Positions 45,288-64,000 of a DNA stretch of 64,000 nucleotides are shown here, in pieces (position 1 is the first letter of the stretch; the number at the start of each line of letters is the position of its first letter). Location of the stretch: IMG/VR virus record IMGVR_UViG_3300046028_007828, positions 12,533-76,532 of that record. The stretch is one strand, 5' to 3'. The notes below the pieces were generated by a model. That model saw nothing but the letters and a program-made list of their open reading frames with translations, was not told where the DNA came from and ran no database searches. The stretch comes from a virus. The position numbers and the translations under genes were made by a program.

Positions 45288-45303
45288 ATTTTTACTAAAT
45301 GTT

Positions 45304-47742: not shown

Positions 47743-48233
47743 AATTAAATACACACGAACAATACATAAAACAGTTGGCCGAGACTCCTTATTTCGATGG
47801 CCGATGGCCATATTACTCGGTTGTTGGACAAGAAGCCGAAAAAATGAATCCCGGTAGCGTGTTGGAGCTTGGGGCCGCAGGATTTCCTATATTTGTCGAC
47901 GGCACGACTATGGATATACATCAAAAGTTTTCTCCTACTGTAAAACATGATGGTCGAGTGTCTCCATGGCCATTCAAGGATAAAACATTCGATTTGTTTA
48001 TTTCTTTACAAGTGTGGGAACACCTAGACAACAAACAAGGTCAAGCCTTCAACGAAGTTCGCCGAGTTGCAAAGTCGGCAATATTAAGCTTTCCGTATAA
48101 GTGGAAAACCGCCGACCCATTAGATTTTCATAACAATTTAGACGAGACTATATTTGCAAAATGGACAGGAAACTTACCGGCCAGAACAATCTTAATCGGA
48201 ACGCGAATGATATATATATTTGATACCTTGTAA
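47739..48233 (+). CDS. Class I SAM-dependent methyltransferase-like
   Basis: VLELGA, WPFKDKTFDL...VWEHL...EVRRV. Confidence 0.7.
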   Translation: MKLNTHEQYIKQLAETPYFDGRWPYYSVVGQEAEKMNPGSVLELGAAGFPIFVDGTTMDIHQKFSPTVKHDGRVSPWPFKDKTFDLFISLQVWEHLDNKQGQAFNEVRRVAKSAILSFPYKWKTADPLDFHNNLDETIFAKWTGNLPARTILIGTRMIYIFDTL

Positions 48234-48847: not shown

Positions 48848-49425
48848 AGACTGCGCACATAGTAGGAAAAGGCACCACGGCAAAGTCGATAAAAAGGGCA
48901 GATTTTCCAAACGACATTTTGGTTGGAATCAACCACGGGGCTATGTTTATAGATGAATTGGACTATATTTTCGCAAACGATGTAGAAGGGTTGGAAGGAA
49001 TGGCCGACGAAAAGTTCAACCATGTTAAAAACATAGCAATACCCGAGCATCCGCACGTACAAGGAATTCCTCGCGCCGATATAACTTATAAGCGAGTAGT
49101 TGATAAATTTCCGGGGAAACCAATAAATTTTATAATCTACAATTTGTTCACATGGAAGCCCCAGAACCCCGATTTGCCAACACCGGAGAGAGCAAATACC
49201 TCGGCTGGAATGGCAGTGGGATATTTATTAAAATATGAAAATGTGAAGCAATTTGAGTTGTATGGGATAGGAAAAGGAAATGGATATCACCAGACCGTAT
49301 TAGATATATTACCAAAAGAACAAGTAAAATTTAAGAACAATTGGGACGGGCAGCGGAAAGATGATTTGATTGAGAGTATAATAAAGGCGTGTGCCAAATA
49401 TAATGCCAAGGTAAATTTTAACTAA
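48844..49425 (+). CDS. Hypothetical, GT29/MAF-like fold candidate
   Basis: AHIVGKG...VGIN...TSAGMAV...LYGI; sits in the glyco cluster. Confidence 0.5.
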   Translation: MKTAHIVGKGTTAKSIKRADFPNDILVGINHGAMFIDELDYIFANDVEGLEGMADEKFNHVKNIAIPEHPHVQGIPRADITYKRVVDKFPGKPINFIIYNLFTWKPQNPDLPTPERANTSAGMAVGYLLKYENVKQFELYGIGKGNGYHQTVLDILPKEQVKFKNNWDGQRKDDLIESIIKACAKYNAKVNFN

Positions 49426-49427
49426 TT

Positions 49428-50054
49428 ATGATAACAATAGCATCTGTATTAAGGTCGGGTGGAGATTATAATGCTTCACATGTCGCTATTCTAGAAGCGT
49501 CCGTAAAAAAACATTTATCGGTCGAACATTCGTTCGTATGTTTATCGGATGTAGAATGTGGAGTTGAGCGAATCCCCCTCACCGACGGCTGGTCCGGTTG
49601 GTGGTCTAAATTGGAACTTTTTAAAATACCGGGACCAGTCATTTATTTTGACTTGGATACTATTATAATAAATAATTTAGATTCTATAGTAGAAAAAATG
49701 TTAGTCCCCGAATTCTGTATATTACGAGATGTTTTCATCGGGAAGAAAGACCCACACTCAATGCAATCAAGTGTGATGTCGTGGCGTGGAGATATGAGTG
49801 AGTTATATAAAACATTTCTGGAGTCTCCCGAGAAATATATTAAATTATACAAAGGAGACCAAGATTTTATATATGCACAACTTGGGAAAACCAGAGCTGC
49901 GTATTATCAAGATATATTGCCAAACAATATTATGAGTTATAAAGCACATCTCAGAGGTAAACCAATACCACCGGAAACTAAAATAGTGATATTTCACGGA
50001 TTACCCAGACCATGGCAACAAACTCAAATTCCTTATGATAATATTAAAAAATAA
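49428..50054 (+). CDS. Glycosyltransferase (GT8-like)
   Basis: GWWSKLELF, YFDLD, GDQDFI, FHGLPRPW. Confidence 0.78.
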   Translation: MITIASVLRSGGDYNASHVAILEASVKKHLSVEHSFVCLSDVECGVERIPLTDGWSGWWSKLELFKIPGPVIYFDLDTIIINNLDSIVEKMLVPEFCILRDVFIGKKDPHSMQSSVMSWRGDMSELYKTFLESPEKYIKLYKGDQDFIYAQLGKTRAAYYQDILPNNIMSYKAHLRGKPIPPETKIVIFHGLPRPWQQTQIPYDNIKK

Positions 50055-50652
50055 TTGGTGGGTTCCTGAAATAGATACACACTGCTTTCAGGCGGTGTTA
50101 AAAGAAGTCGAGGCCGTCGATGAACTCGCCAACCTTTGCAAGACCAAGCGGGTGTGTATCCAAGCGGGAGGAAATCTCGGAATTTGGCCAAAAAAGCTAT
50201 CTACTATATTCGACTCGGTGTACACATTTGAACCCGACTTGGAAAATTGGCAAGCCCTTGAAAAAAATTTGGTCGGTATAAATAATATACATGCAAAAAA
50301 TTGCGCGCTTGGAGCAATTCCGGGAAAAGTATCAATAGATAGACTGAAACCGAATAATGTTGGAGCGCACCAAGTTAAAGATGGGGCGGACACAGAAAGA
50401 ATAACTATAGATAGTTTAAATTTGTCCGAAGTTAGTCTTATACAACTGGACGTGGAGGGAAGTGAACATGATGCGATATTGGGAGCAAAAGCTACTTTAT
50501 TGCGAAGTAATCCTATTGTTGTATTGGAGTTAAAGGGGTTGGGAAAGCGGTATGGACATTCCGACGCAAATACGGTAAAACTGCTCGGAGAGTTGGGATT
50601 TTCTCATATAAAAACCATCAAGCGCGACTGGGTATTTTCGAAACTTTCTTGA
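50035..50652 (+). CDS. FkbM-family methyltransferase
   Basis: QAGGNLG, TFEP, ALG, IQLDVEGSE. Confidence 0.85.
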   Translation: MIILKNNWWVPEIDTHCFQAVLKEVEAVDELANLCKTKRVCIQAGGNLGIWPKKLSTIFDSVYTFEPDLENWQALEKNLVGINNIHAKNCALGAIPGKVSIDRLKPNNVGAHQVKDGADTERITIDSLNLSEVSLIQLDVEGSEHDAILGAKATLLRSNPIVVLELKGLGKRYGHSDANTVKLLGELGFSHIKTIKRDWVFSKLS

Positions 50653-50676
50653 CATCTAATAAAAATTATCTAAGAT
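50649..50676 (+). promoter_or_regulatory. Promoter for kinase/PolB
   Basis: TTGACA-16nt-TAAGAT, 6 nt before ATG (near-leaderless). Confidence 0.7.
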
Positions 50677-50682
50677 GGGTAT

Positions 50683-51129
50683 ATGAAACCCAATTTATTT
50701 GTTATGGTAGGAATTAGCGGCTCTGGAAAGAGCACCTATTCCAACAAGTTGAAGACCGACTTTTCAGCCGAACTGGTCGAGACCGATGCAATTCGCGTGG
50801 AATTGAGCGGAGATGCACAAGACCAGACCCAAAATGGTCGAGTATTTTCCGTTGCCAAGGACCGCGTCGCGAAGTATTTGGCGGAGGGAAAGAATGTTAT
50901 TATCGACGCGACCAGTCTGTCTATCAAGGACCGTAAGGATTGGGTCGAGATTGGCAAAGCCAACTCGGCGCTCATCAATGCTTATTTTGTAGATACGCCA
51001 GTCAATGTCGCTAAACAGAGAAATTCTTCTCGTTTGCGCCAAGTTCCGGAGTGGGTTATCGACAAGCAAGCATCTAAGCTACACGCCCCGACTCGTTCTG
51101 AGGGATTTGATGCGGTTTCCGTGGTATAA
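50683..51129 (+). CDS. Stand-alone P-loop polynucleotide kinase (AAA_33)
   Basis: GISGSGKST, D.IR, IIDAT, R..R..VP; no HAD domain. Confidence 0.82.
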   Translation: MKPNLFVMVGISGSGKSTYSNKLKTDFSAELVETDAIRVELSGDAQDQTQNGRVFSVAKDRVAKYLAEGKNVIIDATSLSIKDRKDWVEIGKANSALINAYFVDTPVNVAKQRNSSRLRQVPEWVIDKQASKLHAPTRSEGFDAVSVV

Positions 51130-51151
51130 CACCGAGTCAAACTGTTCCAAT

Positions 51152-53707
51152 ATGTACCAAGCTATTTACTGCGAGCACAAGACCGGCATTGTTCATCTAT
51201 GGGACGATATAAATGGATATGTAAATTTTAAACACAAGCCATACGCATATAAACGTTCCCAAAATGGGAAGTATATGTCGATTTATGGCGATAAGCTAGA
51301 CCGGGTAGAGAAGTATAATTTCAAAGACCCATCATTATTTGAATCCGACGTTCCGTGGGATACCCGCGTTCTGATTGATGCGTACACCGACAGTGATGAA
51401 ATGAGCATAAATCACCGGATTGCAATTTTGGACATTGAAACGGATTCCACCGGAGGATATCCCAACATAGAAATTCCGGAGCAAAAAATCACCGCTATTG
51501 CATTGAGGGATGATGCGAACGACAAGTATTACTGTCTTGTTTTGGACGAGGAAAACGTTGTGGCGGACGAAGTGACCGGAAATATTAATATTTTAGGATA
51601 TCGAACTGAGCAGTCACTGTTGACGGAGTTTCTTAAGAGATGGCGCAGCGTGAACCCGACGATTGCCACTGGGTGGAATACTGATGGATTTGACTTCATG
51701 TATCTATCGGCTCGATTGGACGCCGTGTTAGGAGATGGCGCAAAAAATGGTTTATCTCCTATCAATGTTTGCTATTTCAATAAATATAAAGACAAGATGA
51801 CGATTGCCGGAGTCAATTGTCTGGATTATCTTGTTCTATATAAAAAGTATAGCGGAAAGAACCTACCAAACTATCGACTAGATACCGTCGCAAAAGAGGA
51901 GTTGAAAGAGGGAAAGATTGTGTATCAAGGGTCGCTTGATAGCTTAAAACGCACAGACATTAAAAAATTCATCGAGTATAATTTACACGACGTTGTGTTA
52001 ATCAAACGACTGAATGATTCTCTCCAATTTATTGAATTGGCGATGTCGATTTGTCACGTATGTCACGTGGGTTATGAAGAGTTTCATGTGTCGTCCAAAT
52101 TCTTGGAAGGCGCGTTGCTAACGTATCTTAGGAGAAAGCATTTGGTTGCACCAAACAAACGACCAAAGTCCGAAGAAGATATAGACGATTTAGCAATTTC
52201 CGACGGAGATGATGATGACGACGACGTTGGATTTGAGGGTGCTTATGTAAAAGACCCAATCCCCGGTAGATACGATTGGATTTGTAGCGCGGACATCAAT
52301 TCGCTGTATCCATCGGTTATTATGAGTTTGAATATTTCGCCCGAGACAAAGCTGGATGTTATAGCCGAGTGGAGTCCTGAGAAATTAATCAAGAAGTCTG
52401 CCGATACAATTCAATTTGCCGGTGACCCATATACATACGCACAGTTCTCGGAAATTGTGACGGAGAACAATCTATCTGTGAGTTCAAACGGCGTAGTTTA
52501 CGATCAAAACAAGCTCGGTTGTATTCCCGATATTTTGAAAACGTGGTTCGCCGAACGTCTGGAGTTTAAAACCAAGATGAAAGACGCGAGCAATCGCATG
52601 AAGAAAAGTAATTCACCGGAGGATAAGGCTGACTACGTTTTCTGGAAGAGGCGACAACACGTGCAGAAGATTCTGTTGAATTCTCTGTATGGTGTATTGG
52701 GATTGTCTGTGTTTAGATTTTACGACTTAGACAATGCCGCCGCAGTTACATTAACTGGGCAAGATATCATTAAAACTTCGGCGAAGTACGTAAATGGTAA
52801 ATTCAATAAACGTTGCAATAGTACAGACAAGGACTATGTAGTTTACATTGATACCGACTCATTGTACTTGGACATAAACTCGCTGGCAATACATGACAAA
52901 ATTGTGGACATTAAACCGTACGCAATTAAAACTATCAAAGAAGTTGAGGCGGATTTAAATAATTTTTACGTCGTCATGATGTTGAGAATGTTCAACTCGA
53001 CCGACAATCGAATCAAAATCGCCGCCGATGTTGTGGCACAGTCCGCTTTCTGGGTTGTTAAAAAGCGTTATGCCATGCATAAAGTGTATAACATGGAAGA
53101 AAGCAAAGACATGGACGACATTGAAATCAAGGGACTAGACGTTGTTAGGTCGTCTTATCCGAGGAAATTCCGAGATTTCATGAGTTCTGTATTGTCCGAT
53201 ATTCTCAAAGGTACTACTAATTTGGCTCTAAACACTAAGGTATTGGAGTTCAAGCGAACAATGCCATCATTCAATTTAGAGGACGTGGCAAAAAATACAT
53301 CCGTTAGATTCATCTCAAATACTGCCGCTAAGACAAACTTTAATCCACCAAGCCGGGAGCCATTCCAGTTTGTGTATGGGGCCACGGCACAATGTAAAGC
53401 TTCACTTGCATATAACGACATGTTGAAGAATTATAATGAGGGTGGAACCGAGCCGATATTGAGCGGAGGAAAAATCAAGTGGGTTTATCTCAGAGACAAT
53501 CCATTTGGGTTGAATGGTATGGCGTTCAAAGATGACGGAAAAGACCCACAAGTAATAATGGATTTTATTTTGACATACATCGACCGAGAAGCTATATGGA
53601 ACTCGGAATTGGAAAAGAAATTGAAAGCATTCTACGAAGCATTGCGTTGGGATTTTTATTGCGACGAAATTGAGGCCGTTCAACAATTTTTCACATTTGA
53701 CGATTAA
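51152..53707 (+). CDS. Family B DNA polymerase (gp43-like)
   Basis: LDIET, GWN.DGFD, YNLHD exonuclease motifs; DINSLYPS, KILLNSLYG, YIDTDS, KKRY; start trimmed to MYQAIY. Confidence 0.96.
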   Translation: MYQAIYCEHKTGIVHLWDDINGYVNFKHKPYAYKRSQNGKYMSIYGDKLDRVEKYNFKDPSLFESDVPWDTRVLIDAYTDSDEMSINHRIAILDIETDSTGGYPNIEIPEQKITAIALRDDANDKYYCLVLDEENVVADEVTGNINILGYRTEQSLLTEFLKRWRSVNPTIATGWNTDGFDFMYLSARLDAVLGDGAKNGLSPINVCYFNKYKDKMTIAGVNCLDYLVLYKKYSGKNLPNYRLDTVAKEELKEGKIVYQGSLDSLKRTDIKKFIEYNLHDVVLIKRLNDSLQFIELAMSICHVCHVGYEEFHVSSKFLEGALLTYLRRKHLVAPNKRPKSEEDIDDLAISDGDDDDDDVGFEGAYVKDPIPGRYDWICSADINSLYPSVIMSLNISPETKLDVIAEWSPEKLIKKSADTIQFAGDPYTYAQFSEIVTENNLSVSSNGVVYDQNKLGCIPDILKTWFAERLEFKTKMKDASNRMKKSNSPEDKADYVFWKRRQHVQKILLNSLYGVLGLSVFRFYDLDNAAAVTLTGQDIIKTSAKYVNGKFNKRCNSTDKDYVVYIDTDSLYLDINSLAIHDKIVDIKPYAIKTIKEVEADLNNFYVVMMLRMFNSTDNRIKIAADVVAQSAFWVVKKRYAMHKVYNMEESKDMDDIEIKGLDVVRSSYPRKFRDFMSSVLSDILKGTTNLALNTKVLEFKRTMPSFNLEDVAKNTSVRFISNTAAKTNFNPPSREPFQFVYGATAQCKASLAYNDMLKNYNEGGTEPILSGGKIKWVYLRDNPFGLNGMAFKDDGKDPQVIMDFILTYIDREAIWNSELEKKLKAFYEALRWDFYCDEIEAVQQFFTFDD

Positions 53708-53752
53708 CGTTGACAAACGTTCTTGGAAATGTAACATCGAACAATATTTATT

Positions 53753-54472
53753 ATGCAAAAAAGCAGCCTACTACGTTTTATTGAGCTATATAATCTATCC
53801 GGCACGGTAGAAAAAGTTAAGTTGGTTTCTGACGGAACCAACCTAAAAGCTAAAATTGTGACCGACGATAAAAGTTTGGCCGGATGCATCGAATACAAAA
53901 ATTTACCAATCGAGGCCGGGGAATATGCAGTCCATGATACTGCACAACTCAAAAAGATGCTGAGTATTTTCGATGACACATTGAATATCGGAATCGACAA
54001 GGTAAACGGAAGAAATGTAAGTTTTTCTTTTAAGGACAAGACAGCAGAATCTTTGTATATGTTGGCCGATTTGTCGGTTATCCCCAGAACAGTGAGTGTT
54101 CCAAACACCATTGTATTCGACTTGGAACTTGCACTGGATGATAGTTTTATGGAAAGATTCATTCGGGCTAAGTCCGCGCTGTTGGAGGCCGAAACATTCA
54201 CCATAATGATGAATGACAAGGGAGCGGTCGAAGTAATCGTTGGACACAGTAACATCAATAGCAATAGGATTAAGTTGGTGGCAACACCAGTCGGAGTGCC
54301 CGCTCCCAAGAAGGATATCACCTTTAATGCCAACTATTTCAAGGATATTTTGTTAAGAAACCGTGGAACGCCAAGTGTATTGAAAATCAACACCGACGGA
54401 ATCGGACACGTGAATTTCACGTGCGCAGATTATGTTGCCGATTACTATTTGTTAAAGACCGCGATTAAATAA
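53753..54472 (+). CDS. Sliding clamp (gp45-like)
   Basis: 239 aa, beta-rich, between PolB and clamp loader; promoter TTGACA-16-TAACAT at 53710..53737. Confidence 0.72.
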   Translation: MQKSSLLRFIELYNLSGTVEKVKLVSDGTNLKAKIVTDDKSLAGCIEYKNLPIEAGEYAVHDTAQLKKMLSIFDDTLNIGIDKVNGRNVSFSFKDKTAESLYMLADLSVIPRTVSVPNTIVFDLELALDDSFMERFIRAKSALLEAETFTIMMNDKGAVEVIVGHSNINSNRIKLVATPVGVPAPKKDITFNANYFKDILLRNRGTPSVLKINTDGIGHVNFTCADYVADYYLLKTAIK

Positions 54473-54473
54473 T

Positions 54474-55427
54474 ATGAGTTTTATAGAAATAGACGAAACT
54501 GCACAATCTCCAGTAGCACATACTCTCTGGGTGGAGAAGTATAGACCTATTGGACTTGACCAATATGTTGGAAACGACACACTAAAAGCAAAAATAAAAC
54601 AATATATCGCGAATAATGATATTCCACATCTGTTGTTTTATGGAAGTGCGGGAACAGGCAAGACGACATTAGCAAAACTAATTGCTAGCAGCATCAAATG
54701 TGATGTAATGTATATCAACGCATCGGATGAAAATGGAATCGAGACGGTTCGCGTAAAAATCAAGAATTTCGCGTCTACAATTGGATTCAACAATTTGAAG
54801 ATTATTATATTGGATGAGGCCGACTATTTTACTCCAGCCGGTCAAGCTGGTTTGCGTAATACGATGGAAACTTTCAGTGAACATACTAGGTTTATATTAA
54901 CCGCAAACCATCACGAGAGAATAGTTGACCCGATTATTTCTCGCTGCCAACTATTCTCAATTACTCCACCGTCGAAAAACGAAGTGGCGATGACGCTATT
55001 AAGAATATTGACCGCAGAAAATGTGAAGTTCGAGAAAAAGGACATCGCGTTAATCGTTCAATCTCATTACCCAGATATCCGGGCGGTGATAAACACAGCC
55101 CAGCGGAATGTGATTAGCGGCGAATTGAAAGTGGCAACGGAGGATGTTGCGCAGGGCGACCTTAAAACGAAGCTACTGGCACACTTGATGAATAAAGATA
55201 CGAAACGGGCGTTCACGGACATTCGGCAATTGATGGCGAATAATTCAATCAAAAGTTATTCCGATTTTTATACATATATGTACGAACAAGTTGAAGTATA
55301 TGCACCCGAGAATGTCGTGGAAGTTGTTGTTATTCTGGCCGACAGCCAGTTCCAAGACGCACAGGTTGTAGACAAGGAAATTTGTTTCGCCGCGTGTATC
55401 AGCAAAGTTTTAAATTCAACCAAATAA
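54474..55427 (+). CDS. Clamp loader AAA+ subunit (gp44/RFC-like)
   Basis: LWVEKYRP, GSAGTGKT, INASDE, ILDEAD, ISRC. Confidence 0.95.
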   Translation: MSFIEIDETAQSPVAHTLWVEKYRPIGLDQYVGNDTLKAKIKQYIANNDIPHLLFYGSAGTGKTTLAKLIASSIKCDVMYINASDENGIETVRVKIKNFASTIGFNNLKIIILDEADYFTPAGQAGLRNTMETFSEHTRFILTANHHERIVDPIISRCQLFSITPPSKNEVAMTLLRILTAENVKFEKKDIALIVQSHYPDIRAVINTAQRNVISGELKVATEDVAQGDLKTKLLAHLMNKDTKRAFTDIRQLMANNSIKSYSDFYTYMYEQVEVYAPENVVEVVVILADSQFQDAQVVDKEICFAACISKVLNSTK

Positions 55428-55431
55428 AATT

Positions 55432-55833
55432 ATGTATTCAGCAGTATTATTAGACGAAAAATCTCAACTTGCTCTATCAGCATGGGCAGATAAAAATATC
55501 AAAATCAATGGCGTTAGATTACCCATTGTTGTTCGTGACAATGGTTGGAAAATGATTTGTCATCATATGACAATAAAGTTTGGCGGCACTCCCGAGTTTG
55601 TTAAACAATATCTTGGCACAGAACAAAACCTTGAAATCACTCATTATGGAATGAGTGACAAGGCTGTTGCTGTGCGTGTTGTTGGTTTTCATAGTGAAAA
55701 CAAAATTCCTCATATCACTGTGGCAGTAAATGTTAAAAATGGTGGAAAGCCAGTTGACAGCAACAAAATCACTGAATGGCTTACAGTTGAAAAAGGACCA
55801 ACGCTAAAAGGCGTCGTGACAGAACTACAATGA
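55432..55833 (+). CDS. 2H phosphoesterase (2',3'-cyclic phosphodiesterase-like)
   Basis: Two HxT motifs: CHHMTI and KIPHITVAV. Confidence 0.8.
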   Translation: MYSAVLLDEKSQLALSAWADKNIKINGVRLPIVVRDNGWKMICHHMTIKFGGTPEFVKQYLGTEQNLEITHYGMSDKAVAVRVVGFHSENKIPHITVAVNVKNGGKPVDSNKITEWLTVEKGPTLKGVVTELQ

Positions 55834-56048
55834 AAATCAACGACGCTGTATTCTTCACAGACAACACAACTGTTCGTCTGGAAACTGACAAGGGCAACTT
55901 TTATCTCACCGATAAAGGCAAGTTTTATAACATGCATCCGATAAACGTGATGGCAGATGAAATCAAGGTAGCAGAATTGAAAGAAATCAAATCTGTTGCC
56001 AAAAAGGGTGGATATAAAAACGACAAAGAAGTGAAGAAATGGTTATGA
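55830..56048 (+). CDS. Hypothetical protein
   Basis: 72-aa ORF with ATGA overlaps on both sides. Confidence 0.6.
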   Translation: MKINDAVFFTDNTTVRLETDKGNFYLTDKGKFYNMHPINVMADEIKVAELKEIKSVAKKGGYKNDKEVKKWL

Positions 56049-56947
56049 ATAAAGACAATGTAAGTGGACTAATTATAGGTTCTCTTGTAGGCGATGCACT
56101 TGGAGTACCGGTAGAATTTCGTCCACGGGAAGTTTTGCGTCAAAATCCCGTCGTTGACATGCGTTCGTTTGGCACACATTTTCAACCAAAAGGAACATGG
56201 TCGGATGATGGTTCATTACTTCTTATAACATTGGAGACGCTTATAAACAAGGAACCACCGGTCGAAGCATTGAAAAAGTTCGTGAAATGGGTCAACGAGG
56301 GATATTGGACTGCACACGGCGACGCATTTGATATTGGAAACACCACAGCAGACGCAATAGCGGGCTTTATGCAGCACGGTAAGCCTTCCGCCCCCCATAC
56401 GCCACAAAGCAACGGAAATGGCGCATTAATGAGGATTGCGCCACTTGCTCTGTTCGTGGATTCAAAGCATACAAAACCGGAAGAGTTATATAAACTCTGT
56501 GGAGAATGGTCTGCACTTACCCATGGACATGAAATATCGGCATTTGCCTGCACTTATTATACAATGTTGATTTCTCTTATTCTAAGTGGATGTTCATTGT
56601 CGGAGGCTCACTTGTATACTTGCTCATTGACTGAAAAATTCGCACCAAAAGAATTTGATAGATTATTGAGTTCGATAAAGCACATCTCAGATTACAACCT
56701 AGAAGATATAAAGTCTGATGGGTATTGTCTACACACACTGGAAGCGGCAGTTTGGGCAGCATTCAATAGTCCATCTTACAAAGACAGTGTGTTGATGGCA
56801 GTAAATATGGGAGAAGACACGGACACGACTGCGAGCGTGTGTGGAGGAATCTTGGGGGCATATTATGGAAAATCTGCAATACCTAAAGAATGGGTACAAT
56901 CTCTGGCAAGACTAAATGATATTGAAAACTTAATCGCAAAAATATGA
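56045..56947 (+). CDS. ADP-ribosylglycohydrolase (DraG/ARH family)
   Basis: GDALGVP.EF, WSDD, DIG.TT, GNGALMR, LTH, GEDTDT. Confidence 0.93.
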   Translation: MNKDNVSGLIIGSLVGDALGVPVEFRPREVLRQNPVVDMRSFGTHFQPKGTWSDDGSLLLITLETLINKEPPVEALKKFVKWVNEGYWTAHGDAFDIGNTTADAIAGFMQHGKPSAPHTPQSNGNGALMRIAPLALFVDSKHTKPEELYKLCGEWSALTHGHEISAFACTYYTMLISLILSGCSLSEAHLYTCSLTEKFAPKEFDRLLSSIKHISDYNLEDIKSDGYCLHTLEAAVWAAFNSPSYKDSVLMAVNMGEDTDTTASVCGGILGAYYGKSAIPKEWVQSLARLNDIENLIAKI

Positions 56948-57243
56948 AATCTAAACTTGACCAAATGTACAATGAGATTGAAACCGGATGGAATGTCGGT
57001 CTAAAAAAGCTTAGAGAAGGAAGCACCCCCTTGACCGAAAGCGCACGAAAGTCGATAGAAGAAACAAGAAATAACGTTGTGGAAGACATGCGCGATGCAA
57101 ACATATATAGACACATTGGAGTTCCGGGTGCAGCGGAATCTTCGGACCCCGGCGATGATATTGAACATTGGCAAGAAATATATGACTGGTGTTCTCGAAT
57201 ATTATCTATAATAGACGAAATGTTAGCACATAAAACTATATGA
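56944..57243 (+). CDS. Hypothetical protein
   Basis: 99-aa ORF with ATGA overlaps. Confidence 0.6.
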   Translation: MKSKLDQMYNEIETGWNVGLKKLREGSTPLTESARKSIEETRNNVVEDMRDANIYRHIGVPGAAESSDPGDDIEHWQEIYDWCSRILSIIDEMLAHKTI

Positions 57244-57497
57244 ATCGTCGTAGATTTCTAACAACATTGTTTGGGTTGGCAGCGGCTCCTGTTATAGTAG
57301 CGAGAGTATTGTCGGCACCACCCAAGCCGACATTATTGGCTTTCAAAGGAAAGCGGTTTATGGAGACTGGATATGTATATGCTCCATACATTCCAATGCT
57401 TATTACACCGATGATAGATATAAAACCAATGAGAAACTCACCACTCGGTAAAGTATTTTACATGAATAAGTATTATACAAAACATACAACCTTGTGA
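57240..57497 (+). CDS. Small protein: twin-arginine-like signal plus major-capsid-like motifs
   Basis: MNRRRFLTTLFGLAAAP; FKGKRFMETGYVYAPYIPM; IKPMRNSPLGKVFY. Confidence 0.65.
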   Translation: MNRRRFLTTLFGLAAAPVIVARVLSAPPKPTLLAFKGKRFMETGYVYAPYIPMLITPMIDIKPMRNSPLGKVFYMNKYYTKHTTL

Positions 57498-57793
57498 TTA
57501 CTGTCGTAAACAAATACAAACACACTCCAACACCAAATGATATTTATATTGGTCGCGGCTCTGCATTTGGAAATCCATATGTGATTGGCAGTGAATATAC
57601 ACGAGATAAAGCAGTGGATGCATATTGTACATACTTGAATGCCAAGCGGCAATATAATGCACAATTTAGACATGAACTGCAAAAGATTGCCGACAAAGCA
57701 AAGATAAGTGACATAAACCTCGTGTGTTATTGCAAGCCACAAAGATGTCATGGAGATATTTTGAAAGAATTGTTAGAGTCGGAGTATTTATAG
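57494..57793 (+). CDS. DUF4326 protein
   Basis: IYIGRGSAFGNPY...LVCYCKPQRCHGDIL. Confidence 0.88.
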   Translation: MITVVNKYKHTPTPNDIYIGRGSAFGNPYVIGSEYTRDKAVDAYCTYLNAKRQYNAQFRHELQKIADKAKISDINLVCYCKPQRCHGDILKELLESEYL

Positions 57794-57897
57794 AAATATT
57801 TCTTTATTATATATTGACAATTTCAATATTTGAAACATAGTTATACTTCGAAGTCACCATTGTGGTGCTAGTAACTAAAATAACAAAAGGTTGAAAT

Positions 57898-58809
57898 ATG
57901 TCATATAAACATGGTATTGGTATGTCCGTTTGCATAAATGGACGAGCAACAAAGGAATATTCTAAAGATGGAACTTCCTTTATAGAAGCAAGGCATGGTA
58001 CTAATTATACCGTGAAACTCAAAAACGATAATGGCTATAAAGTAATGGCTGTATTGTCGGTAGATGGATTGGATGTTGTTACAGGCAAACCAGCCGAAGA
58101 CAGTAACAAAGGCTATATTCTTGATCCATACAGCAGTGTAGAAATAAAAGGCTACAGAATCAGCGACAAAGAATCTGCGGCATTTATTTTTACAAGCAAA
58201 GGCAAGAGTTATGTACAACAAACAAGCGGAGATGCCAGAAATTCTGGTGTAATTGGTGTAAGAGTATTTGGTGAAAAATCAAAACCTCAACCAATTTCGC
58301 AACCATATCCGGTGAGTCCGTGGAATCCATTTCCATATTCAATATCTTATGCAACAGGTAGTGGTTTTACGCAAACATATACAAACTATGTTTCTACGGG
58401 CGGTACAACTACTTGTGCAACAAATGCCGCAACATACACCACATCCAACAATACTCTTGGATGTTATGGAACAAATGCCGCAACATTTACTACCGAAACC
58501 GCAATCACAAGCAGAAATCTCGGACTAAATACCAGATCGGCAATATCAAATACATTTGATACTCCGTTGAGTTACAAACAATTTGACACTGGTACTGGTT
58601 GGGGCAAAAAGTTGGACGACAGAGTAAAAAAAGAATACTTTGATAAAGGAGAACTTCTTGCCGAGATTGTGTCTTATTATGCTTCACGCGAAGCATTGGA
58701 AACTATGGGAATTGATTTGTCTGATAGTCCAAGAGTTACCGAAGAAGAAAAAAAGCCACAGGCATTTGGTAGCAAATATTGCCAACCACCAACTGGATGG
58801 GTCGGCTAA
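57898..58809 (+). CDS. Hypothetical conserved protein with Thr-rich linker
   Basis: VLSVDGLDVVTG...GVIGVRVF.E...GTGWG; promoter TTGACA-16-CATAGT at 57814..57841. Confidence 0.7.
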   Translation: MSYKHGIGMSVCINGRATKEYSKDGTSFIEARHGTNYTVKLKNDNGYKVMAVLSVDGLDVVTGKPAEDSNKGYILDPYSSVEIKGYRISDKESAAFIFTSKGKSYVQQTSGDARNSGVIGVRVFGEKSKPQPISQPYPVSPWNPFPYSISYATGSGFTQTYTNYVSTGGTTTCATNAATYTTSNNTLGCYGTNAATFTTETAITSRNLGLNTRSAISNTFDTPLSYKQFDTGTGWGKKLDDRVKKEYFDKGELLAEIVSYYASREALETMGIDLSDSPRVTEEEKKPQAFGSKYCQPPTGWVG

Positions 58810-58838
58810 AAAATAAACAATCAAATACAAAACTTTAT

Positions 58839-59531
58839 ATGAAAAAAATTATTCACGCACTAACAATCATCGACAAATCAAGCAGTATGAATCCTTATCG
58901 CTCTCGTACCATTGAAGGGATCAATGAAAATATCAACGCTCTCAAAAAAGAAGTAGATGCCGACACGGACATTCTTAATACTCAACTTCAATTCAGTGCA
59001 ACTGGAAATTCTTGGGGATGGAATGGGGGAGCAAAAACCCAAGAAACGGACTTAAAGTTTGTTCGGGTTGGTCAAAAGGTACAAGAATTGACGGATATGA
59101 CCAATGAACAATATGAACCAGCGGGCGGCACTCCATTACTTGATGCTATTGGTCTTGGTATTGAAAAAGTAAAAGATTTCCACGGTGACAAGCTCGGTGA
59201 AGATAATCTCAAGATCATTGTGACAATCTTTACTGACGGAGAAGAAAACTCGTCCATCAAGCATGATCGCGCAAGTATCAAGAAGATGATTGATCATTTT
59301 CAATCTGATGGAAAGTGGACTTTCACTTTCGTTGGCTGTGGATCGTTTGATAATGTAGCGGCAACATCTGCTGCTATGGGGATAAATGCCGCCAATACGA
59401 TTGCAGTCGCTGACAGTGACGCAGGAAGATCAGTTGCCAATGCTAAAATTGCAACCTCATATACAAACTATGTAAGGTCTGCAAAATTGGGAGTGGTTGA
59501 CAACGACCTGTTTACAGAAAAAAGTCTATAA
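58839..59531 (+). CDS. von Willebrand factor A domain protein
   Basis: IIDKSSSM MIDAS, GGTPLLDAIG, FTDGEENSS, W.F.FVG. Confidence 0.88.
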   Translation: MKKIIHALTIIDKSSSMNPYRSRTIEGINENINALKKEVDADTDILNTQLQFSATGNSWGWNGGAKTQETDLKFVRVGQKVQELTDMTNEQYEPAGGTPLLDAIGLGIEKVKDFHGDKLGEDNLKIIVTIFTDGEENSSIKHDRASIKKMIDHFQSDGKWTFTFVGCGSFDNVAATSAAMGINAANTIAVADSDAGRSVANAKIATSYTNYVRSAKLGVVDNDLFTEKSL

Positions 59532-59535
59532 TACG

Positions 59536-59561
59536 AAAACCCACCTTTCGGTGGGTTTTTT
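59536..59561 (+). terminator. Intrinsic terminator
   Basis: AAAACCCACC-TTTC-GGTGGGTTTT. Confidence 0.88.
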
Positions 59562-59599
59562 ATTGACTTATTGTTATTTTGGTTCATGGTAATACAATT

Positions 59600-60625
59600 A
59601 TGAGTGAACGTAAATTAGCATCAATCCAGAAAATAACGGAAATCCTACCAATTGACGGTGCGGATAAGATTGTGTGTGTAAAAATTCTGGGGTGGCAATG
59701 CGTGGCACTAAAGACTGAATTCAAAGTTAATGACCTTTGTGTTTTTTTTGAAATAGATAGTGTTCTTCCCATCGCACAATGGAATGATCATTTGAGAAAA
59801 GAACCAAACAAGCAATTGCGTATAAAAACTATACGTTTGAGAGGCACATTGAGTCAAGGTCTTGCCATGCCACTTTCTATTCTTCCAGACGGACAATATG
59901 AAGTAGGTCAAGATGTTACACAATTGGTTGGCGTAACCAAATATGAACCATTTGTTCCAGCACATCTATCTGGTGTGGCCAAAGGAAACTTTCCAGCATT
60001 TTTACACAAAACCGATGAACCTCGTTTACAATCCAGCCCTAATGTCTTACAAGAAGCCATTGACAAAAATCTTGTGCTTGTTGGCACACTCAAAATGGAC
60101 GGTACAAGTTTTACTGCGTATCGAAGAGACGCTGATTTTGGCGTGTGTTCTCGCAACTTGGATTTGACGCAAACAGAGGACAATGCTCATTGGAAGATGG
60201 CTCGCAAGATCAAACTTGAAGAAATTCTTCGCAGTGAATCTCGCAATCTTTGTGTACAAGGTGAAATGGTTGGTCCCGGTATTCAAGCCAACCGTCTTGG
60301 ATTCAAAGAAGTTGAACTGCATTTATTCAATTTGTATGACATCGACACAGGCAAGTATTTTAGTCATAACGAATTGATTGAATTTGGAAAGAAGCACAAT
60401 ATAAAAGTTGTTGAAACACTTAGTGTTATTCAGTTTAGTAATGATATGGCACCCAGAGATGTTAATTATCTTTTGAACATTGCCAATGAGCTAAACTATT
60501 CCAACGGCACTCCCGCAGAAGGTATTGTTTGGCGTCCAACCGTTGAAACATACAGCGAAGTTCTTAAAGGTCGCATGAGTTTCAAGACCATCAGTAACCG
60601 TTACTTGGAAAAATACAAAGAATGA
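59600..60625 (+). CDS. RNA ligase, DRB0094 family
   Basis: RKLASI..I..I.PI.GADKI N-terminal OB, SQGL, KTDE.RLQ, KMDGTS, QGE..GPGIQ, EGIV, SFK. Confidence 0.92.
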   Translation: MSERKLASIQKITEILPIDGADKIVCVKILGWQCVALKTEFKVNDLCVFFEIDSVLPIAQWNDHLRKEPNKQLRIKTIRLRGTLSQGLAMPLSILPDGQYEVGQDVTQLVGVTKYEPFVPAHLSGVAKGNFPAFLHKTDEPRLQSSPNVLQEAIDKNLVLVGTLKMDGTSFTAYRRDADFGVCSRNLDLTQTEDNAHWKMARKIKLEEILRSESRNLCVQGEMVGPGIQANRLGFKEVELHLFNLYDIDTGKYFSHNELIEFGKKHNIKVVETLSVIQFSNDMAPRDVNYLLNIANELNYSNGTPAEGIVWRPTVETYSEVLKGRMSFKTISNRYLEKYKE

Positions 60626-60876
60626 AAACTTATAAAGGTTTTATCTTTGGACCAAATAAAATACCCAAGAAAGGCGATGCTTTGCTTTGGGTAATAGGAG
60701 ACAGAGTGATCAATGGCGAGTGGCATCTGAAGGTTTCAGCCGACAATCTCACCGCCGTTGTTCCATATACAGGCCAAACTGTTTATAACCTGCGTGCTGC
60801 TCCTTATGAGATGGGCCATGATTATAATGATGTGCTGAAAAGGGTCGAAGCGACTCTTGGCAATCAAACATACTAA
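60622..60876 (+). CDS. Hypothetical protein
   Basis: 84-aa ORF, ATGA overlap with the ligase. Confidence 0.6.
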   Translation: MKTYKGFIFGPNKIPKKGDALLWVIGDRVINGEWHLKVSADNLTAVVPYTGQTVYNLRAAPYEMGHDYNDVLKRVEATLGNQTY

Positions 60877-61046
60877 CAAATATCTCTTCATGATATTATG
60901 AGCACTGAATTGCATGTAAAGTTGTTATAATAAGTGATTTATGTAAAAAAATGCAAAAAAGATGATATTTTTCGAAAAAAGTGTTTGACAATTCATTTTT
61001 TTCCATACATAGTTCTATTTATTAAATAACAGTAATAACAAATTCA

Positions 61047-61178
61047 ATGAGACATTATTCAATCAAATCGCAATCCGTGACCTCCAAGTGGAGTGTGCGC
61101 TTTAATGCGACACAACCTACACTCGGAGCCAATGAAGGCGACTTGTTGGGTGGTCCGGTTGAGGAAAAGATTTTCTAA
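61047..61178 (+). CDS. Putative leader peptide (43 aa, MRHYSIKSQSVTSKWSVRFNATQPTLGANEGDLLGGPVEEKIF); not in ORF track
   Basis: ATG after an A-rich leader, downstream of TTGACA (60985) and TATTTAT (61016); followed by a terminator whose 5' arm is complementary to the ORF 3' part. Confidence 0.6.
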   Translation: MRHYSIKSQSVTSKWSVRFNATQPTLGANEGDLLGGPVEEKIF

Positions 61179-61204
61179 ATAAAAATCAAATCCAAAACCT
61201 CCGG

Positions 61205-61235
61205 AACCACCCTCTAAAAAAGAAGGTGGTTTTTT
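61205..61235 (+). terminator. Intrinsic terminator / attenuator hairpin
   Basis: AACCACC-C-TCT-AAAAA-AGA-A-GGTGGTT + T-run. Confidence 0.75.
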
Positions 61236-61264
61236 AATTTTAGGGAAAGTAAGTAAGAAAAAGT

Positions 61265-61383
61265 TTGACAGAAGATAAAAAAGAGTCAAGGTGACAGAAG
61301 ATAAGAAAAAGAAAGGGTAGCGAAAGAGAAAGTTAAAAAAAGTTCGAAAAGATAGTTGACAGCGAAAGATAAAAGAGTAAGAT
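61265..61383 (+). promoter_or_regulatory. Tandem promoters upstream of tRNA array
   Basis: TTGACA-16-CAAGGT (61265) and TTGACA-16-TAAGAT (61356..61383) in A-rich context; the two spacers are related (GATAAAA..GAG). Confidence 0.6.
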
Positions 61384-61698
61384 GGTCAGCGTTGTAGTAG
61401 CAAAGGCGAAACAACAAAAAGTTTTTTCACAGTACAATTTTGACAGGTAAAAGCGCACCTAGAAAGCGTGCTAAAATAGCCACCGGCCCATTTAGGGACC
61501 GTTTTGTGGGAATCAATATCAATAAGTTCAGGTAGGGTTGAGGTTAGAGTGAGTAACTTTATTGTGAGGCCGAAGTATAAGTTATTTTTAATAAAGTTGG
61601 AGAGATCAACAATAAGATACGCAAGTAGCGTATTGAGTTGGCCTCTCCTAACAATTTCAAGTCGTTCTACTGACCGACTCTAAATAAATCAGTTATAT

Positions 61699-61777
61699 GG
61701 AAGTCAAGCTATTCGGGACGGGCACCTCCCTCTTAAGGAGAACATTCGTGTGGGTTCAACTCCCACGGCTTCCACCA
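61699..61777 (+). tRNA. tRNA-Lys(CTT)
   Basis: GGAAGTC/GGCTTCC acceptor, loop CT-CTT-AA, GTTCAAC T-loop, CCA. Confidence 0.85.
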
Positions 61778-61838
61778 TTTTTTCAAAATAATTGATGTTA
61801 TGTGAGTATATATTATATTTATTTTTACACATCAAATT

Positions 61839-62171
61839 ATGAACGACCATAAAGATTTACTTGGAGAATTTCTGTCCGGTGGATGGATTGTAGCAATAAT
61901 CGGAGCAGCGGGTATGATAGCAAGATTGCTGACCGACGATGTAAAGATTACACTGATGCAACAAGTTAAAAGAATACTTGCCGCATCAATATGTTCTGTC
62001 ATTACATGGTTTTTATTAGAAAATGTAGATTTAAGTAGTCTGACTAAAGCCGTAACATACGGAGTAGTTGGAGTAATCAGTCCAGAAATTTTAGAAGGTT
62101 TGTCGAAGTTGGGAAAGAGTTTTGCAAAAAATCCTTTCAAATTCTTCAGGCGGACAAAAAAGATTGAGTAA
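61839..62171 (+). CDS. Multi-TM membrane protein (holin-like) within the tRNA array
   Basis: Three hydrophobic segments, basic C-terminus; TATTTAT at 61816. Confidence 0.6.
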   Translation: MNDHKDLLGEFLSGGWIVAIIGAAGMIARLLTDDVKITLMQQVKRILAASICSVITWFLLENVDLSSLTKAVTYGVVGVISPEILEGLSKLGKSFAKNPFKFFRRTKKIE

Positions 62172-62175
62172 TAGT

Positions 62176-62252
62176 GCGGGGTTGATGTTTAACGGTTAGC
62201 ATACGAGTTTTCCAAACTTGATGTGGGGGTTCGAATCCCCCACCCCGCTCCA
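62176..62252 (+). tRNA. tRNA-Gly(TCC)
   Basis: GCGGGGT/ACCCCGC, loop TT-TCC-AA, T73, CCA. Confidence 0.92.
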
Positions 62253-62255
62253 ATT

Positions 62256-62318
62256 TGTACTAGGTTTGGTGTTCCAACCATTCCGAAGATATATAGCAAA
62301 CACTAAATACGCAGTACA
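62256..62318 (+). ncRNA. Structured spacer RNA A
   Basis: TGTACT/AGTACA closing stem, 10-bp inner stem GTTTGGTGTT/AACACTAAAT, CGAAG in loop. Confidence 0.45.
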
Positions 62319-62329
62319 GCAAATTTTTT

Positions 62330-62415
62330 GGCTTATTATACCGCTAAGGACGCGGTTCGCACTGTAAATGCGAAGCCCTCGGGCTGGGTTGGTTCGATAC
62401 CGACATAAGCCACCA
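62330..62415 (+). tRNA. tRNA-Tyr(GTA)
   Basis: GGCTTAT/ATAAGCC, loop CT-GTA-AA, long variable arm, CCA. Confidence 0.92.
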
Positions 62416-62422
62416 TTTTTAT

Positions 62423-62498
62423 CCGCTTATAGCTCAATTGGCAGAGCACGCTCTTTATAGGGGCATGGTTGTGGGTTCAACTCCTACTGGGCGGACCA
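62423..62498 (+). tRNA. tRNA-Ile(TAT)
   Basis: CCGCTTA/TGGGCGG, GCTC/GAGC D-stem, loop TT-TAT-AG, A73, CCA. Confidence 0.8.
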
Positions 62499-62509
62499 AT
62501 TTATAATAC

Positions 62510-62597
62510 GGAAAGTTGGCAGAGTGGTCTAATGCAGGACTTTGCTAAAGTCCCGATCCGAAAGGGTCCATAGGTTCGAATCCTATATTTTCCGCCA
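62510..62597 (+). tRNA. tRNA-Ser(GCT)
   Basis: GGAAAGT/ATTTTCC, loop TT-GCT-AA, long variable arm, G73, CCA. Confidence 0.93.
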
Positions 62598-62600
62598 AAT

Positions 62601-62760
62601 TTAGATTCTTGCAAGACGGTGTTCCTTTGAATTGCAATTCAATCGAAGTGACCGCAGCTGAAGTCAGTGGTGAATGATATAATGGCATTATTTCTCCCAT
62701 AAAGGAGAATATCTGGGTTCGACTCCCAGTTTACCGAAAAGCTGACATGAGGCAAAACTT
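62601..62760 (+). ncRNA. Composite RNA containing a tRNA-like domain (62668..62737) with 6-nt anticodon loop and no CCA
   Basis: TGGTGAA/TTTACCG acceptor, TTCTCC-CATAAA-GGAGAA, CTGGG-TTCGACT-CCCAG; enclosed by GTCAG/CTGAC. Confidence 0.55.
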
Positions 62761-62763
62761 TAC

Positions 62764-62838
62764 GCCGAATAAACATAAATGGTAATGTGCTAGTCTTGTA
62801 AACTAGATAAGCGGGTTCGATTCCCGCATTTGGCTCCA
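62764..62838 (+). tRNA. tRNA-Thr(TGT)
   Basis: GCCGAAT/ATTTGGC, loop CT-TGT-AA, CCA. Confidence 0.92.
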
Positions 62839-62840
62839 AT

Positions 62841-62915
62841 TTGTAGGTCGCAATATTCTGAATTATAATTCAGCGAAGATATTCCAATTATTGCGTTAGT
62901 GGAATTCGCCTATAA
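62841..62915 (+). ncRNA. Structured spacer RNA B (possible pseudoknot)
   Basis: TTGTAGG/CCTATAA closing stem; CGCAATA/TATTGCG crossing ATTCCA/TGGAAT; palindrome CTGAATTATAATTCAG; CGAAG. Confidence 0.5.
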
Positions 62916-62923
62916 CAATTTAT

Positions 62924-62999
62924 GCCGTGTGACATAGCTGGTTGTGATGACTCCTCTGCAAAAGGATGGAGATTGGTTCGATTCCAATACGCGGCTCCA
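62924..62999 (+). tRNA. tRNA-Cys(GCA)
   Basis: GCCGTGT/ACGCGGC, loop CT-GCA-AA, T73, CCA; irregular D arm. Confidence 0.8.
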
Positions 63000-63007
63000 A
63001 TTTATAT

Positions 63008-63081
63008 GCGGGATTAGTTTAGTGGTAGAATGTGACATTGCCAATGTCGATACGGGAGTTCGATTCTCCCATCCCGCACCA
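63008..63081 (+). tRNA. tRNA-Gly(GCC)
   Basis: GCGGGAT/ATCCCGC, loop TT-GCC-AA, A73, CCA. Confidence 0.92.
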
Positions 63082-63083
63082 CT

Positions 63084-63209
63084 TTGACAGGATGGAATGG
63101 GCGTCGTATAGTTGGTAAATCAACTTGCAGTCCAACGTGAACCAACCCAGCAGCAACGAAGCGTGAGAAAAGTTGAGTTCTCATGTGAAGCTAGTAGAAG
63201 TTCTGTCAA
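63084..63209 (+). ncRNA. Structured spacer RNA F
   Basis: 10-bp closing stem TTGACAGGAT/GTTCTGTCAA; internal hairpins GTTGG-TAAA-TCAAC and GTGAGAA/TTCTCAT. Confidence 0.5.
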
Positions 63210-63218
63210 TAATTTTAT

Positions 63219-63296
63219 GGCCATGTGACGTAACTGGATAAACGTGTTAGTTTTAGAAACTAAATTCTGTGGGTTCGAGTCCCACCTTGGCTACCA
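63219..63296 (+). tRNA. tRNA-Leu(TAG), short variable loop
   Basis: GGCCATG/CTTGGCT, loop TT-TAG-AA, 5-nt variable region, A73, CCA. Confidence 0.8.
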
Positions 63297-63300
63297 TTTT

Positions 63301-63377
63301 AGGTCGAAACAATGAGTTGCATAAATTCAATGAAACGGTTGGTTAATAACCAACAGCCACTTTTCTTGGCGCGACTT
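63301..63377 (+). ncRNA. Structured spacer RNA D
   Basis: AGGTCG/CGACTT closing stem; three hairpins (TGAGTT/AATTCA, GTTGGTT/AACCAAC, GCCA/TGGC). Confidence 0.45.
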
Positions 63378-63385
63378 TTAATTTT

Positions 63386-63501
63386 GATAGTGTATGTGTT
63401 TTCGTCTCTAAAATCTTACGGCACATGGAAGACGTGTAACGGGTTCAAAGTCCGACCACTTTGCATTGAGCAGAGTGAGTAAGCCAACCATATACATTAT
63501 C
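63386..63501 (+). ncRNA. Structured spacer RNA E
   Basis: 13-bp closing stem GATAGTGTATGTG/CATATACATTATC; T-loop-like GGGTTCAAAGTCC; CACTTTGC/GCAGAGTG hairpin. Confidence 0.55.
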
Positions 63502-63512
63502 AAAAAATTTAT

Positions 63513-63588
63513 GGGAGTTTGGTGAAGGCGGTCCTCACGTCGCACTGAAGATGCGAAGAAGTTGGTTCAATTCCAACAGCTCCCACCA
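63513..63588 (+). tRNA. tRNA-Phe(GAA)
   Basis: GGGAGTT/AGCTCCC, loop CT-GAA-GA, CCA. Confidence 0.9.
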
Positions 63589-63594
63589 TTTTAT

Positions 63595-63668
63595 TGAGAT
63601 ATGTTGTAGTGGTAGCAACGGAGTCTTTGAAACTCTTAGTCTTGGTTCGATTCCAAGTATCTCAGCCA
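63595..63668 (+). tRNA. tRNA-Gln(TTG), copy 1
   Basis: TGAGATA/TATCTCA (U1-A72), loop CT-TTG-AA, G73, CCA. Confidence 0.93.
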
Positions 63669-63811
63669 GTTTGAGAAACCTATACCAATAGGTGTATAAG
63701 CCGAACGGCCCGAGAGGGATGGACGTGAGCTATAGCATGGATGTGTAATCGAAAGAGTATCCACCAAGACTTGTTCTTGGCGCAAAAATCCATTGTGACA
63801 ACACCTCAAAC
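63669..63811 (+). ncRNA. Structured spacer RNA G
   Basis: GTTTGAG/CTCAAAC closing stem; hairpins ACCTAT/ATAGGT, CCC-GAGA-GGG, TGGAT/ATCCA, CCAAGA/TCTTGG. Confidence 0.5.
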
Positions 63812-63817
63812 ATTTAT

Positions 63818-63893
63818 CGGAGTGTGGTGACAAAGGTTGTCGATTCGTTTTGGAAACGAAATTATGCAGGTTCGAGTCCTGTCACTCCGACCA
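63818..63893 (+). tRNA. tRNA-Pro(TGG)
   Basis: CGGAGTG/CACTCCG, loop TT-TGG-AA, A73, CCA; weak D-stem. Confidence 0.88.
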
Positions 63894-63900
63894 CTTTTAT

Positions 63901-63974
63901 TGAGATATGTTGTAGTGGTAGCAACGGAGTCTTTGAAACTCTTAGTCTTGGTTCGATTCCAAGTATCTCAGCCA
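63901..63974 (+). tRNA. tRNA-Gln(TTG), copy 2 (identical to copy 1)
   Basis: Exact repeat of 63595..63668. Confidence 0.93.
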
Positions 63975-64000
63975 TTTTTATTGCGATATAGTGTTAAGTC

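Follow-up and report, generated by a model that had tools for sequence, protein, structure and literature searches.

A putative ribosome-mediated transcription attenuator at the head of a giant-phage tRNA array

Why phages carry large tRNA sets is still debated, and little is known of how those sets are controlled. The locus described here raises the question of whether a phage tRNA array can be governed by the state of translation. The window analysed, a stretch of 64,000 nucleotides, ends an IMG/VR contig of 76.5 kb whose completeness is estimated at ~32%. Its source is an uncultured giant phage that encodes a tail sheath along with DnaB-like and PolA-like proteins. A DNA similarity search of phage records with positions 60880-61700 gave zero matches, and a large protein from the window gave a single weak match, to an uncultured phage, with no close cultured relative. 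Among sequencing runs, none from RNA was listed for the sequence, and one wastewater run contained a 0.04 share of its words.

The element and its promoter

The element sits between a small ORF, itself downstream of an RNA ligase gene (PF09414), and a tRNA array on the same strand. A first-pass annotation of the sequence had proposed a leader-peptide attenuator at this place, with the 1:2 / 2:3 / 3:4 pairing layout, and had suggested that it acts as a general sensor of translation stress or tRNA depletion. The parts of the element, as revised here, are as follows.

60945-60984, + strand: A/T-rich, UP-element-like region, conserved in the alignments of relatives
60985-60990, + strand: -35 box of promoter P1, TTGACA; TTGAC is invariant in all homologs
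61008-61013, + strand: -10 box of P1, CATAGT, after a 17-nt spacer; CATAGT, CATCGT or CATATT in homologs
61020-61046, + strand: predicted A/U-rich 5′ UTR lacking a Shine-Dalgarno sequence, from a putative start site
61047-61178, + strand: leader ORF of 43 codons with an ATG start, encoding 19 amino-acid types
61043-61071, + strand: proposed segment 1 (anti-antiterminator strand), predicted to pair with 61138-61163 before segment 3 is made
61076-61134, + strand: central hairpin in the ORF (CUCC../..GGAG), which includes the segment 1 of the first-pass annotation
61148-61165, + strand: segment 2, the 5′ strand of the antiterminator, ORF codons 34-40
61166-61195, + strand: top of the antiterminator, where the stop codon (61176-61178) lies in a small A/U hairpin
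61196-61212, + strand: segment 3, the 3′ strand of the antiterminator, of which 61203-61212 doubles as the 5′ arm of the terminator
61203-61241, + strand: intrinsic terminator, a hairpin (61203-61233) with one C.A mismatch, then T6-AA-T4

The TTGACA at 60985 was present as annotated. The sequence first taken as its -10 box (TATTTAT, 61016) lies 25 nt past the -35 box, and the role is better assigned to CATAGT, which is both conserved and well spaced. The A/T-rich motif upstream of the -35 box also recurs elsewhere in a complete relative genome. A promoter-family pattern scan of the window returned no more sites than expected by chance.

Homologs in related giant phages

Three kinds of query were used to find homologs: the RNA ligase encoded nearby, a pair of DNA patterns and a profile. 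A protein collection extended the set of peptides to 36 long forms, and the DNA of the extra variants was obtained by pattern scan. The 26 distinct DNA versions of the element found in total come from related giant phages of at least seven sequence groups. Each genome, among them a complete one of 297 kb, has a single strong copy. A pattern scan of metagenomes added four true homologs amid chance matches. Weak extra matches to the covariance model, e.g. L005:2111-2203 (E = 0.05), were taken as noise.

Wherever the fetched DNA of a group was examined for tRNA genes, it held 8-29 of them in an array that the element leads on the same strand; one such array serves all 20 amino acids. The RNA ligase gene is found within ~400 nt upstream in the window and in some relatives (L005/L006), while ~5.5 kb intervenes in others. 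The upstream neighbours therefore vary and the array is constant, which indicates that synteny tracks the tRNA array.

One version is markedly shorter than the rest (L011:7902-8077, identical in L012, L013 and L014), with 23 codons and 13 amino-acid types. A 45-nt in-frame deletion takes out the central hairpin and the conserved core of the peptide. This short form still has its start, its one Trp codon, a 1:2 helix of 10 bp and both alternative hairpins, antiterminator and terminator.

Antiterminator and terminator

The terminator that had been proposed was found as a hairpin followed by a T-run, and it folds as such. A consensus scan missed it in the window owing to the internal mismatch, and folding recovered the hairpin. 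All homologs retain the terminator as a G+C-rich hairpin despite altered stem sequences. As the register of the stem shifts between groups, covariation within the terminator was not counted on one alignment, and per-sequence folds were used instead.

The complementarity of segments 2 and 3 was likewise borne out. When segment 3 was matched against the upstream 171 nt, the best duplex (-22.7 kcal/mol) fell on segment 2, compared with -11.3 ± 2.3 kcal/mol for dinucleotide-shuffled versions of the same 171 nt (P = 0.001), so that the pairing is above chance in the single sequence. When segment 4 was omitted, folding of each group gave the antiterminator as the structure of lowest energy (-17 to -30 kcal/mol), and an apical hairpin of group-specific sequence was found at the same place in each. 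The RNA was strongly structured (z = -3.7).

The family also conserves this pairing, with compensatory changes. RNAalifold on plain MAFFT alignments recovered only helix fragments because indels misalign segment 3, and it was replaced by an alignment guided by a covariance model. An earlier covariation test had used 14 rows. Across 19 distinct rows, 91.4% of cells were paired and nine pairs were changed on both sides. The covariation score was 0.150, compared with 0.059 for shuffled alignments (0/500) and with at most 0.073 when the partner strand was slid. One pair is particularly informative. At pair 12:86, most groups have G-C, one has A-U and the short form has U-A, yet column 86 is a mismatch or a loop base in the terminators of most groups. 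Since the pair covaries even though column 86 is unpaired in most terminators, the 2:3 pairing has been selected in its own right.

The energies of the alternative folds were compared in 13 representatives. For full-length transcripts, the difference between the antiterminator and terminator folds ranged from -6.9 to +4.8 kcal/mol, and for transcripts ending just past segment 3 the antiterminator was ahead by 5-16 kcal/mol. The two mutually exclusive folds are thus predicted to be nearly isoenergetic.

It might be argued that the terminator merely insulates the tRNA operon from upstream transcription and that neither the ORF nor the pairing regulates anything, the element being an ordinary terminator with features due to chance. 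Transcription units are often separated by terminators, and a simple consensus scan found the region to be no richer than expected in sites resembling promoters or terminators, both of which would suit such an arrangement. However, the element has its own conserved promoter, and simple insulation would not account for a 2:3 complementarity that stands out in a single sequence and covaries in the family, nor for folds so closely balanced in all 13 representatives. We regard this explanation as highly improbable.

Upstream pairing and the central hairpin

The annotated layout was upheld in part. Pairing 2:3 and the terminator stood, as described above, and the named segment 1 did not. The sequence at 61123-61131 that had been given this role is the 3′ strand of the central hairpin, and its pairing with segment 2 is lost in relatives, where only GCCA:UGGC persists. 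The basal stem of the central hairpin has three base pairs changed on both sides.

A different partner for segment 2 was suggested by folding of the nascent transcript. In the minimum-energy folds, segment 2 pairs with codons 3-7 in most groups folded; this pairing was absent in L035 and weak in L041. The family consensus for this 1:2 helix, UCACAY:GUGUGG, was 95% paired, with changes that were one-sided and wobble-compatible only, none of them compensatory. At the corresponding place, the window has a complementary 1:2 pair of its own, and so does the short form. A 1:2 helix between the start of the ORF and segment 2 is therefore plausible on these predicted folds.

Conservation of the leader ORF

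The 43-codon ORF was present as annotated; in relatives the ORF is likewise conserved, open and placed ahead of the tRNA arrays. A leader ORF of 23-43 codons was open in 26/26 distinct DNA versions, while the other two frames carried 1-4 stops. Indels of 3, 3, 15 and 45 nt were observed, and each was in frame. Between groups, pN/pS was 0.35-0.9. Translatability has been kept while the sequence itself was only weakly constrained, as expected for a regulatory leader. These features suggest that the leader is translated. The missing Shine-Dalgarno sequence is no argument against this, because other gene starts of the phage share an A-rich context free of such sequences.

The stop codon also fell within the antiterminator throughout. 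Across versions, segment 2 comprises the final 3-4 codons of the ORF, and a stop codon (TAA or TAG) follows immediately 3′ of it in 25/26. The exception is the window, in which this stop is lost and the frame runs seven codons further, into the apical loop of the antiterminator. Judged from this geometry, a terminating ribosome would sit on the antiterminator in every version. In two versions (L071:9901-10129 and L080:8410-8636) the leader stop is TAG and not TAA, with segment 2 and the antiterminator unaltered.

The strong RNA structure, the covarying helices and the location beside tRNA genes could be features of a non-coding RNA switch or small RNA, set by a factor in trans (a protein, a tRNA as in a T-box, or a ligand), in which the reading frame is incidental. 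Segment 2 of the window (GGGUGGUCCGG) also bears a loose likeness to the T-box motif. An untranslated RNA would leave unexplained the frame open in every version, the exclusively in-frame indels, the stops in the other frames and a stop codon always placed inside the antiterminator, and selection for a complete set of amino acids, as described below, would be meaningless for it. Nor was any Rfam family, T-box included, matched by the element at E ≤ 1. A role as a non-coding RNA is accordingly quite unlikely in our judgement. A T-box riboswitch in particular was rejected, as were other known leaders: an Rfam search of 60000-64000 at E ≤ 1 gave only tRNAs and chance matches, and the element has a conserved ORF, which T-box leaders lack.

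Amino-acid composition of the leader peptide

Unlike the leader peptides of classical attenuators, that of the window had been reported to have no run of a single amino acid. No runs were seen on re-examination, each amino acid occurring about once or twice. Hand counts of 19 amino-acid types in the first 34 residues and 34 distinct codons in 43 were both correct, and both lay moderately above the background of same-length windows of the phage's genes (P = 0.010 and P = 0.013, respectively).

To place these values in the family, the 36 distinct long-form peptides (36-43 aa) were considered. Each contained 17-20 amino-acid types, with all 20 present in 19/36 and at least 19 in 34/36. In 37-residue windows of the phage's own proteins, by comparison, all 20 types occurred at a frequency of 0.003 and at least 19 at 0.019. 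A null model was used that keeps the pattern of each column across sequences, and hence the phylogeny, along with the majority residue, and redraws the minority residues. It predicted 2.7 complete peptides where 19 were observed (P < 2.5 × 10−4). When only 13 group representatives were used, seven had all 20 amino acids where 1.25 were expected (P = 3 × 10−4). Distinct codons per leader numbered 28-34, against a background mean of 25-27.6.

The way in which completeness is maintained can be followed in individual residues. Tyr, Arg, Cys and Ile shift position between groups yet are retained: different groups have Tyr at residue 4, 9 or 14, and Arg at 2, 10, 17, 18, 25 or 31. Cys shifts from 18 to 25 exactly where Arg occupies 18. 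In the window peptide, Ile20 and His6 are lost, and Ile6 and His3 are present. These data support selection on the leader peptide for amino-acid completeness, as far as a comparison of sequences can do so. The leader family would then be a clear example from nature of a peptide selected for its composition and not for its sequence.

Two observations limit how completeness may be used. Before segment 2, 18-20 amino-acid types were found in 35/36 peptides, and at least four codons before segment 2 only 16-19. A stalled ribosome would leave segment 2 fully free only if it stopped at least four codons upstream, so that 16-19 types are usable, and this counts against sensing of all 20. The short form has the switch without the completeness, and this too counts against a pan-amino-acid reading. 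One leader was compared by hand with the anticodons of the phage; most codons were readable, a result that is non-discriminating as the tRNA set is nearly complete.

The peptide also has a conserved core, W..CFI.QP..GA.EGD..GVA. The conservation of the motif CFI.QP..GA.EGD goes beyond what a pure sampler of codons would need and counts against the attenuator model, though RNA structure may be a partial cause of it. This core, a pN/pS below 1 and a conserved promoter 3′ of the terminator (see below) are what would be expected of a stand-alone small-protein gene with a functional product of 37-43 aa, whose pairing tunes its own mRNA, e.g. its stability or the coupling of termination with translation, the array being served by the downstream promoters. 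There is precedent for products of this kind acting in trans, as is reported for the leader peptide peTrpL and the attenuator RNA rnTrpL (PMC7968998, PMC6614838).

The same data contain difficulties for a small-protein gene. The leader peptide was unmatched in Pfam, and a search of the protein collection, which holds 22 clusters of leader peptides of 36-43 aa, returned only phage-derived orphans. The pN/pS values are high for a functional protein, and the short form dispenses with the core and still keeps the start, stop, antiterminator and terminator. Residue types are kept while their positions move, which fits conserved composition and not a fold or a binding surface. Covariation of the antiterminator independent of the terminator would also be left unexplained. 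We therefore consider a stand-alone small-protein gene unlikely.

Proposed mechanism

Judged by its sequence features, the element that heads the phage tRNA array probably attenuates transcription in a ribosome-mediated manner. P1 (60985-61013) would start a transcript headed by the short translated ORF. The antiterminator and terminator hairpins compete for one strand, 3′ in the first and the 5′ arm of the second, so that only one of the two could form. A ribosome keeping pace with the polymerase would reach the stop codon inside the antiterminator and cover segment 2, whereupon the terminator would form and the transcript would end near 61240. If the ribosome were instead delayed at an upstream hungry codon, segment 2 would be free to pair with segment 3, and transcription would read through into the tRNAs. 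Where the ORF is left untranslated, either termination by way of 1:2 pairing or read-through may follow. This scheme assumes that transcription and translation are coupled in whichever host the phage infects.

With nearly all 20 amino acids in the leader, almost any shortage of charged tRNA could delay the ribosome. The general sensor of translation stress or tRNA depletion that was first proposed is favoured by the ORF, by the 2:3 covariation and by an amino-acid diversity beyond that due to phylogeny. Gated in this way, the phage would gauge decoding capacity and adjust its tRNA supply, and the switch would link phage tRNAs to translation stress, possibly including host defences that target tRNA. 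A more specific reading, which we offer tentatively and with some doubt, is that the leader is a pangram of the genetic code, such that loss of any charged tRNA, e.g. through a host anticodon nuclease or a defence that depletes tRNA, stalls the ribosome, frees the antiterminator and raises transcription of the phage tRNAs. If this were true, the element would be a sensor of damage to any tRNA, tied to its remedy, and abundant phage tRNAs would restore termination in a feedback loop.

Comparison with known systems

By mechanism, the closest published system is the uORF attenuator of whiB7/wblC in Actinobacteria. [quoted passage not shown] It thus offers a precedent for the sensing of many amino acids proposed here. 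Common to both systems would be a translated uORF, mutually exclusive antiterminator and terminator hairpins, and stalling that leads to read-through (PMC10274678). The output of whiB7 is a transcription factor, whereas the present element is phage-encoded and precedes a tRNA array. The whiB7 uORF is enriched in alanine and free in its amino-acid content, whereas the completeness of the phage leader is apparently selected; the phage ORF is also much shorter and ends inside the antiterminator. A sequence relationship between the two is not evident, and they are likened by mechanism alone.

In the enterobacterial attenuators trpL, hisL, leuL and pheL, and in the multivalent thrL and ilvL, segment 2 is masked once the ribosome sits at the stop codon. 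The phage element would share with the trpL type a promoter, a short ORF, antiterminator and terminator hairpins with a strand in common, and possibly the 1:2 helix. It differs in having no run of regulatory codons and in the position of the putative segment 1 at the very start of the ORF. Attenuators of the trpL type regulate biosynthetic enzymes, whereas the phage leader precedes tRNAs and has a second promoter behind the terminator.

Short upstream ORFs that sense drug-stalled ribosomes are described for toiL-topAI (PMC12121999) and vmlR (PMC9226507), where they are reported to control resistance or toxin genes. The upstream ORF of the phage would have in common with toiL and vmlR its use as a generic sensor of translation trouble that relieves premature termination. 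Neither is reported to gate tRNA genes. Reportedly, toiL acts through Rho and translation, not through an intrinsic terminator.

A long tRNA array is also found in the trn operon of Anabaena PCC 7120, which is up-regulated when translation is impaired, with rtcB co-regulated (PMC8421152, PMC10272220). Induction there occurs via a repressor and promoter repeats (PMC8421152, PMC10272220). Both loci have a long accessory array, and in the window an RNA ligase gene lies just upstream. The words attenuator, leader and terminator are absent from the account of the Anabaena operon.

In a limited literature search, we found no published account of leader-peptide attenuation acting on tRNA genes, and no published leader peptide selected for completeness. 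The architecture of the phage element is that of leader-peptide attenuators. The element is short (~220 nt) and modular.

Downstream promoters and the tRNA array

The region past the terminator contains the following features.

61266-61445, + strand: three promoter-like TTGACA sites (61266, 61356 and 61440), 3′ of the terminator
61446-61580, + strand: conserved structured RNA of ~135 nt, between the downstream promoters and the first tRNA
61699-63974, + strand: tRNA array with 14 ARAGORN calls, truncated at the edge of the contig; read-through presumably targets this array

Further promoter-like sites beyond the terminator had been anticipated in the first-pass annotation, and three were seen. 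The first is conserved in every group as TTGACA-N16-TAGAGT, 25-45 nt past the terminator. Because a conserved promoter lies past the terminator, the switch can be only one input, and the array does not depend on read-through. Read-through would perhaps be an added input, as in tandem arrangements of a regulated and a basal promoter.

In the window, a promoter-like unit (an A-run, TTGACAG and AAGATAA) is present in about three repeats at 61258-61390, where relatives have one. This looks like a local tandem amplification.

The structured RNA at 61446-61580 had compensatory changes in 7/20 predicted pairs, e.g. CCACCGG../..CCG..GUGG, and its homologs include L005:6935-7065 and L035:418-605. It gave no match in Rfam. 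The block may serve as a leader on the tRNA precursor, or it may be a small RNA in its own right.

Within the array, ARAGORN made a tRNA-like call at 62668-62737 with an undetermined two-base anticodon, at which the Rfam tRNA model found no match. An ORF of 110 codons with hydrophobic stretches (61839-62171) lies between tRNA-Lys and tRNA-Gly in the window. It had no Pfam match, and the complete relative genome has an ORF of similar size, 105 codons, in the corresponding position (L035:740-1057).

A Shine-Dalgarno sequence was absent at 18/18 inspected gene starts in the window (44475-61839), and the regions upstream of these starts are A/T-rich. Gene starts that are A/T-rich and free of Shine-Dalgarno sequences are typical of hosts such as Bacteroidota. 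The conserved promoters of this region are nonetheless of the TTGACA-N17-TAnnnT type, in contrast to the Bacteroidota-like gene starts.
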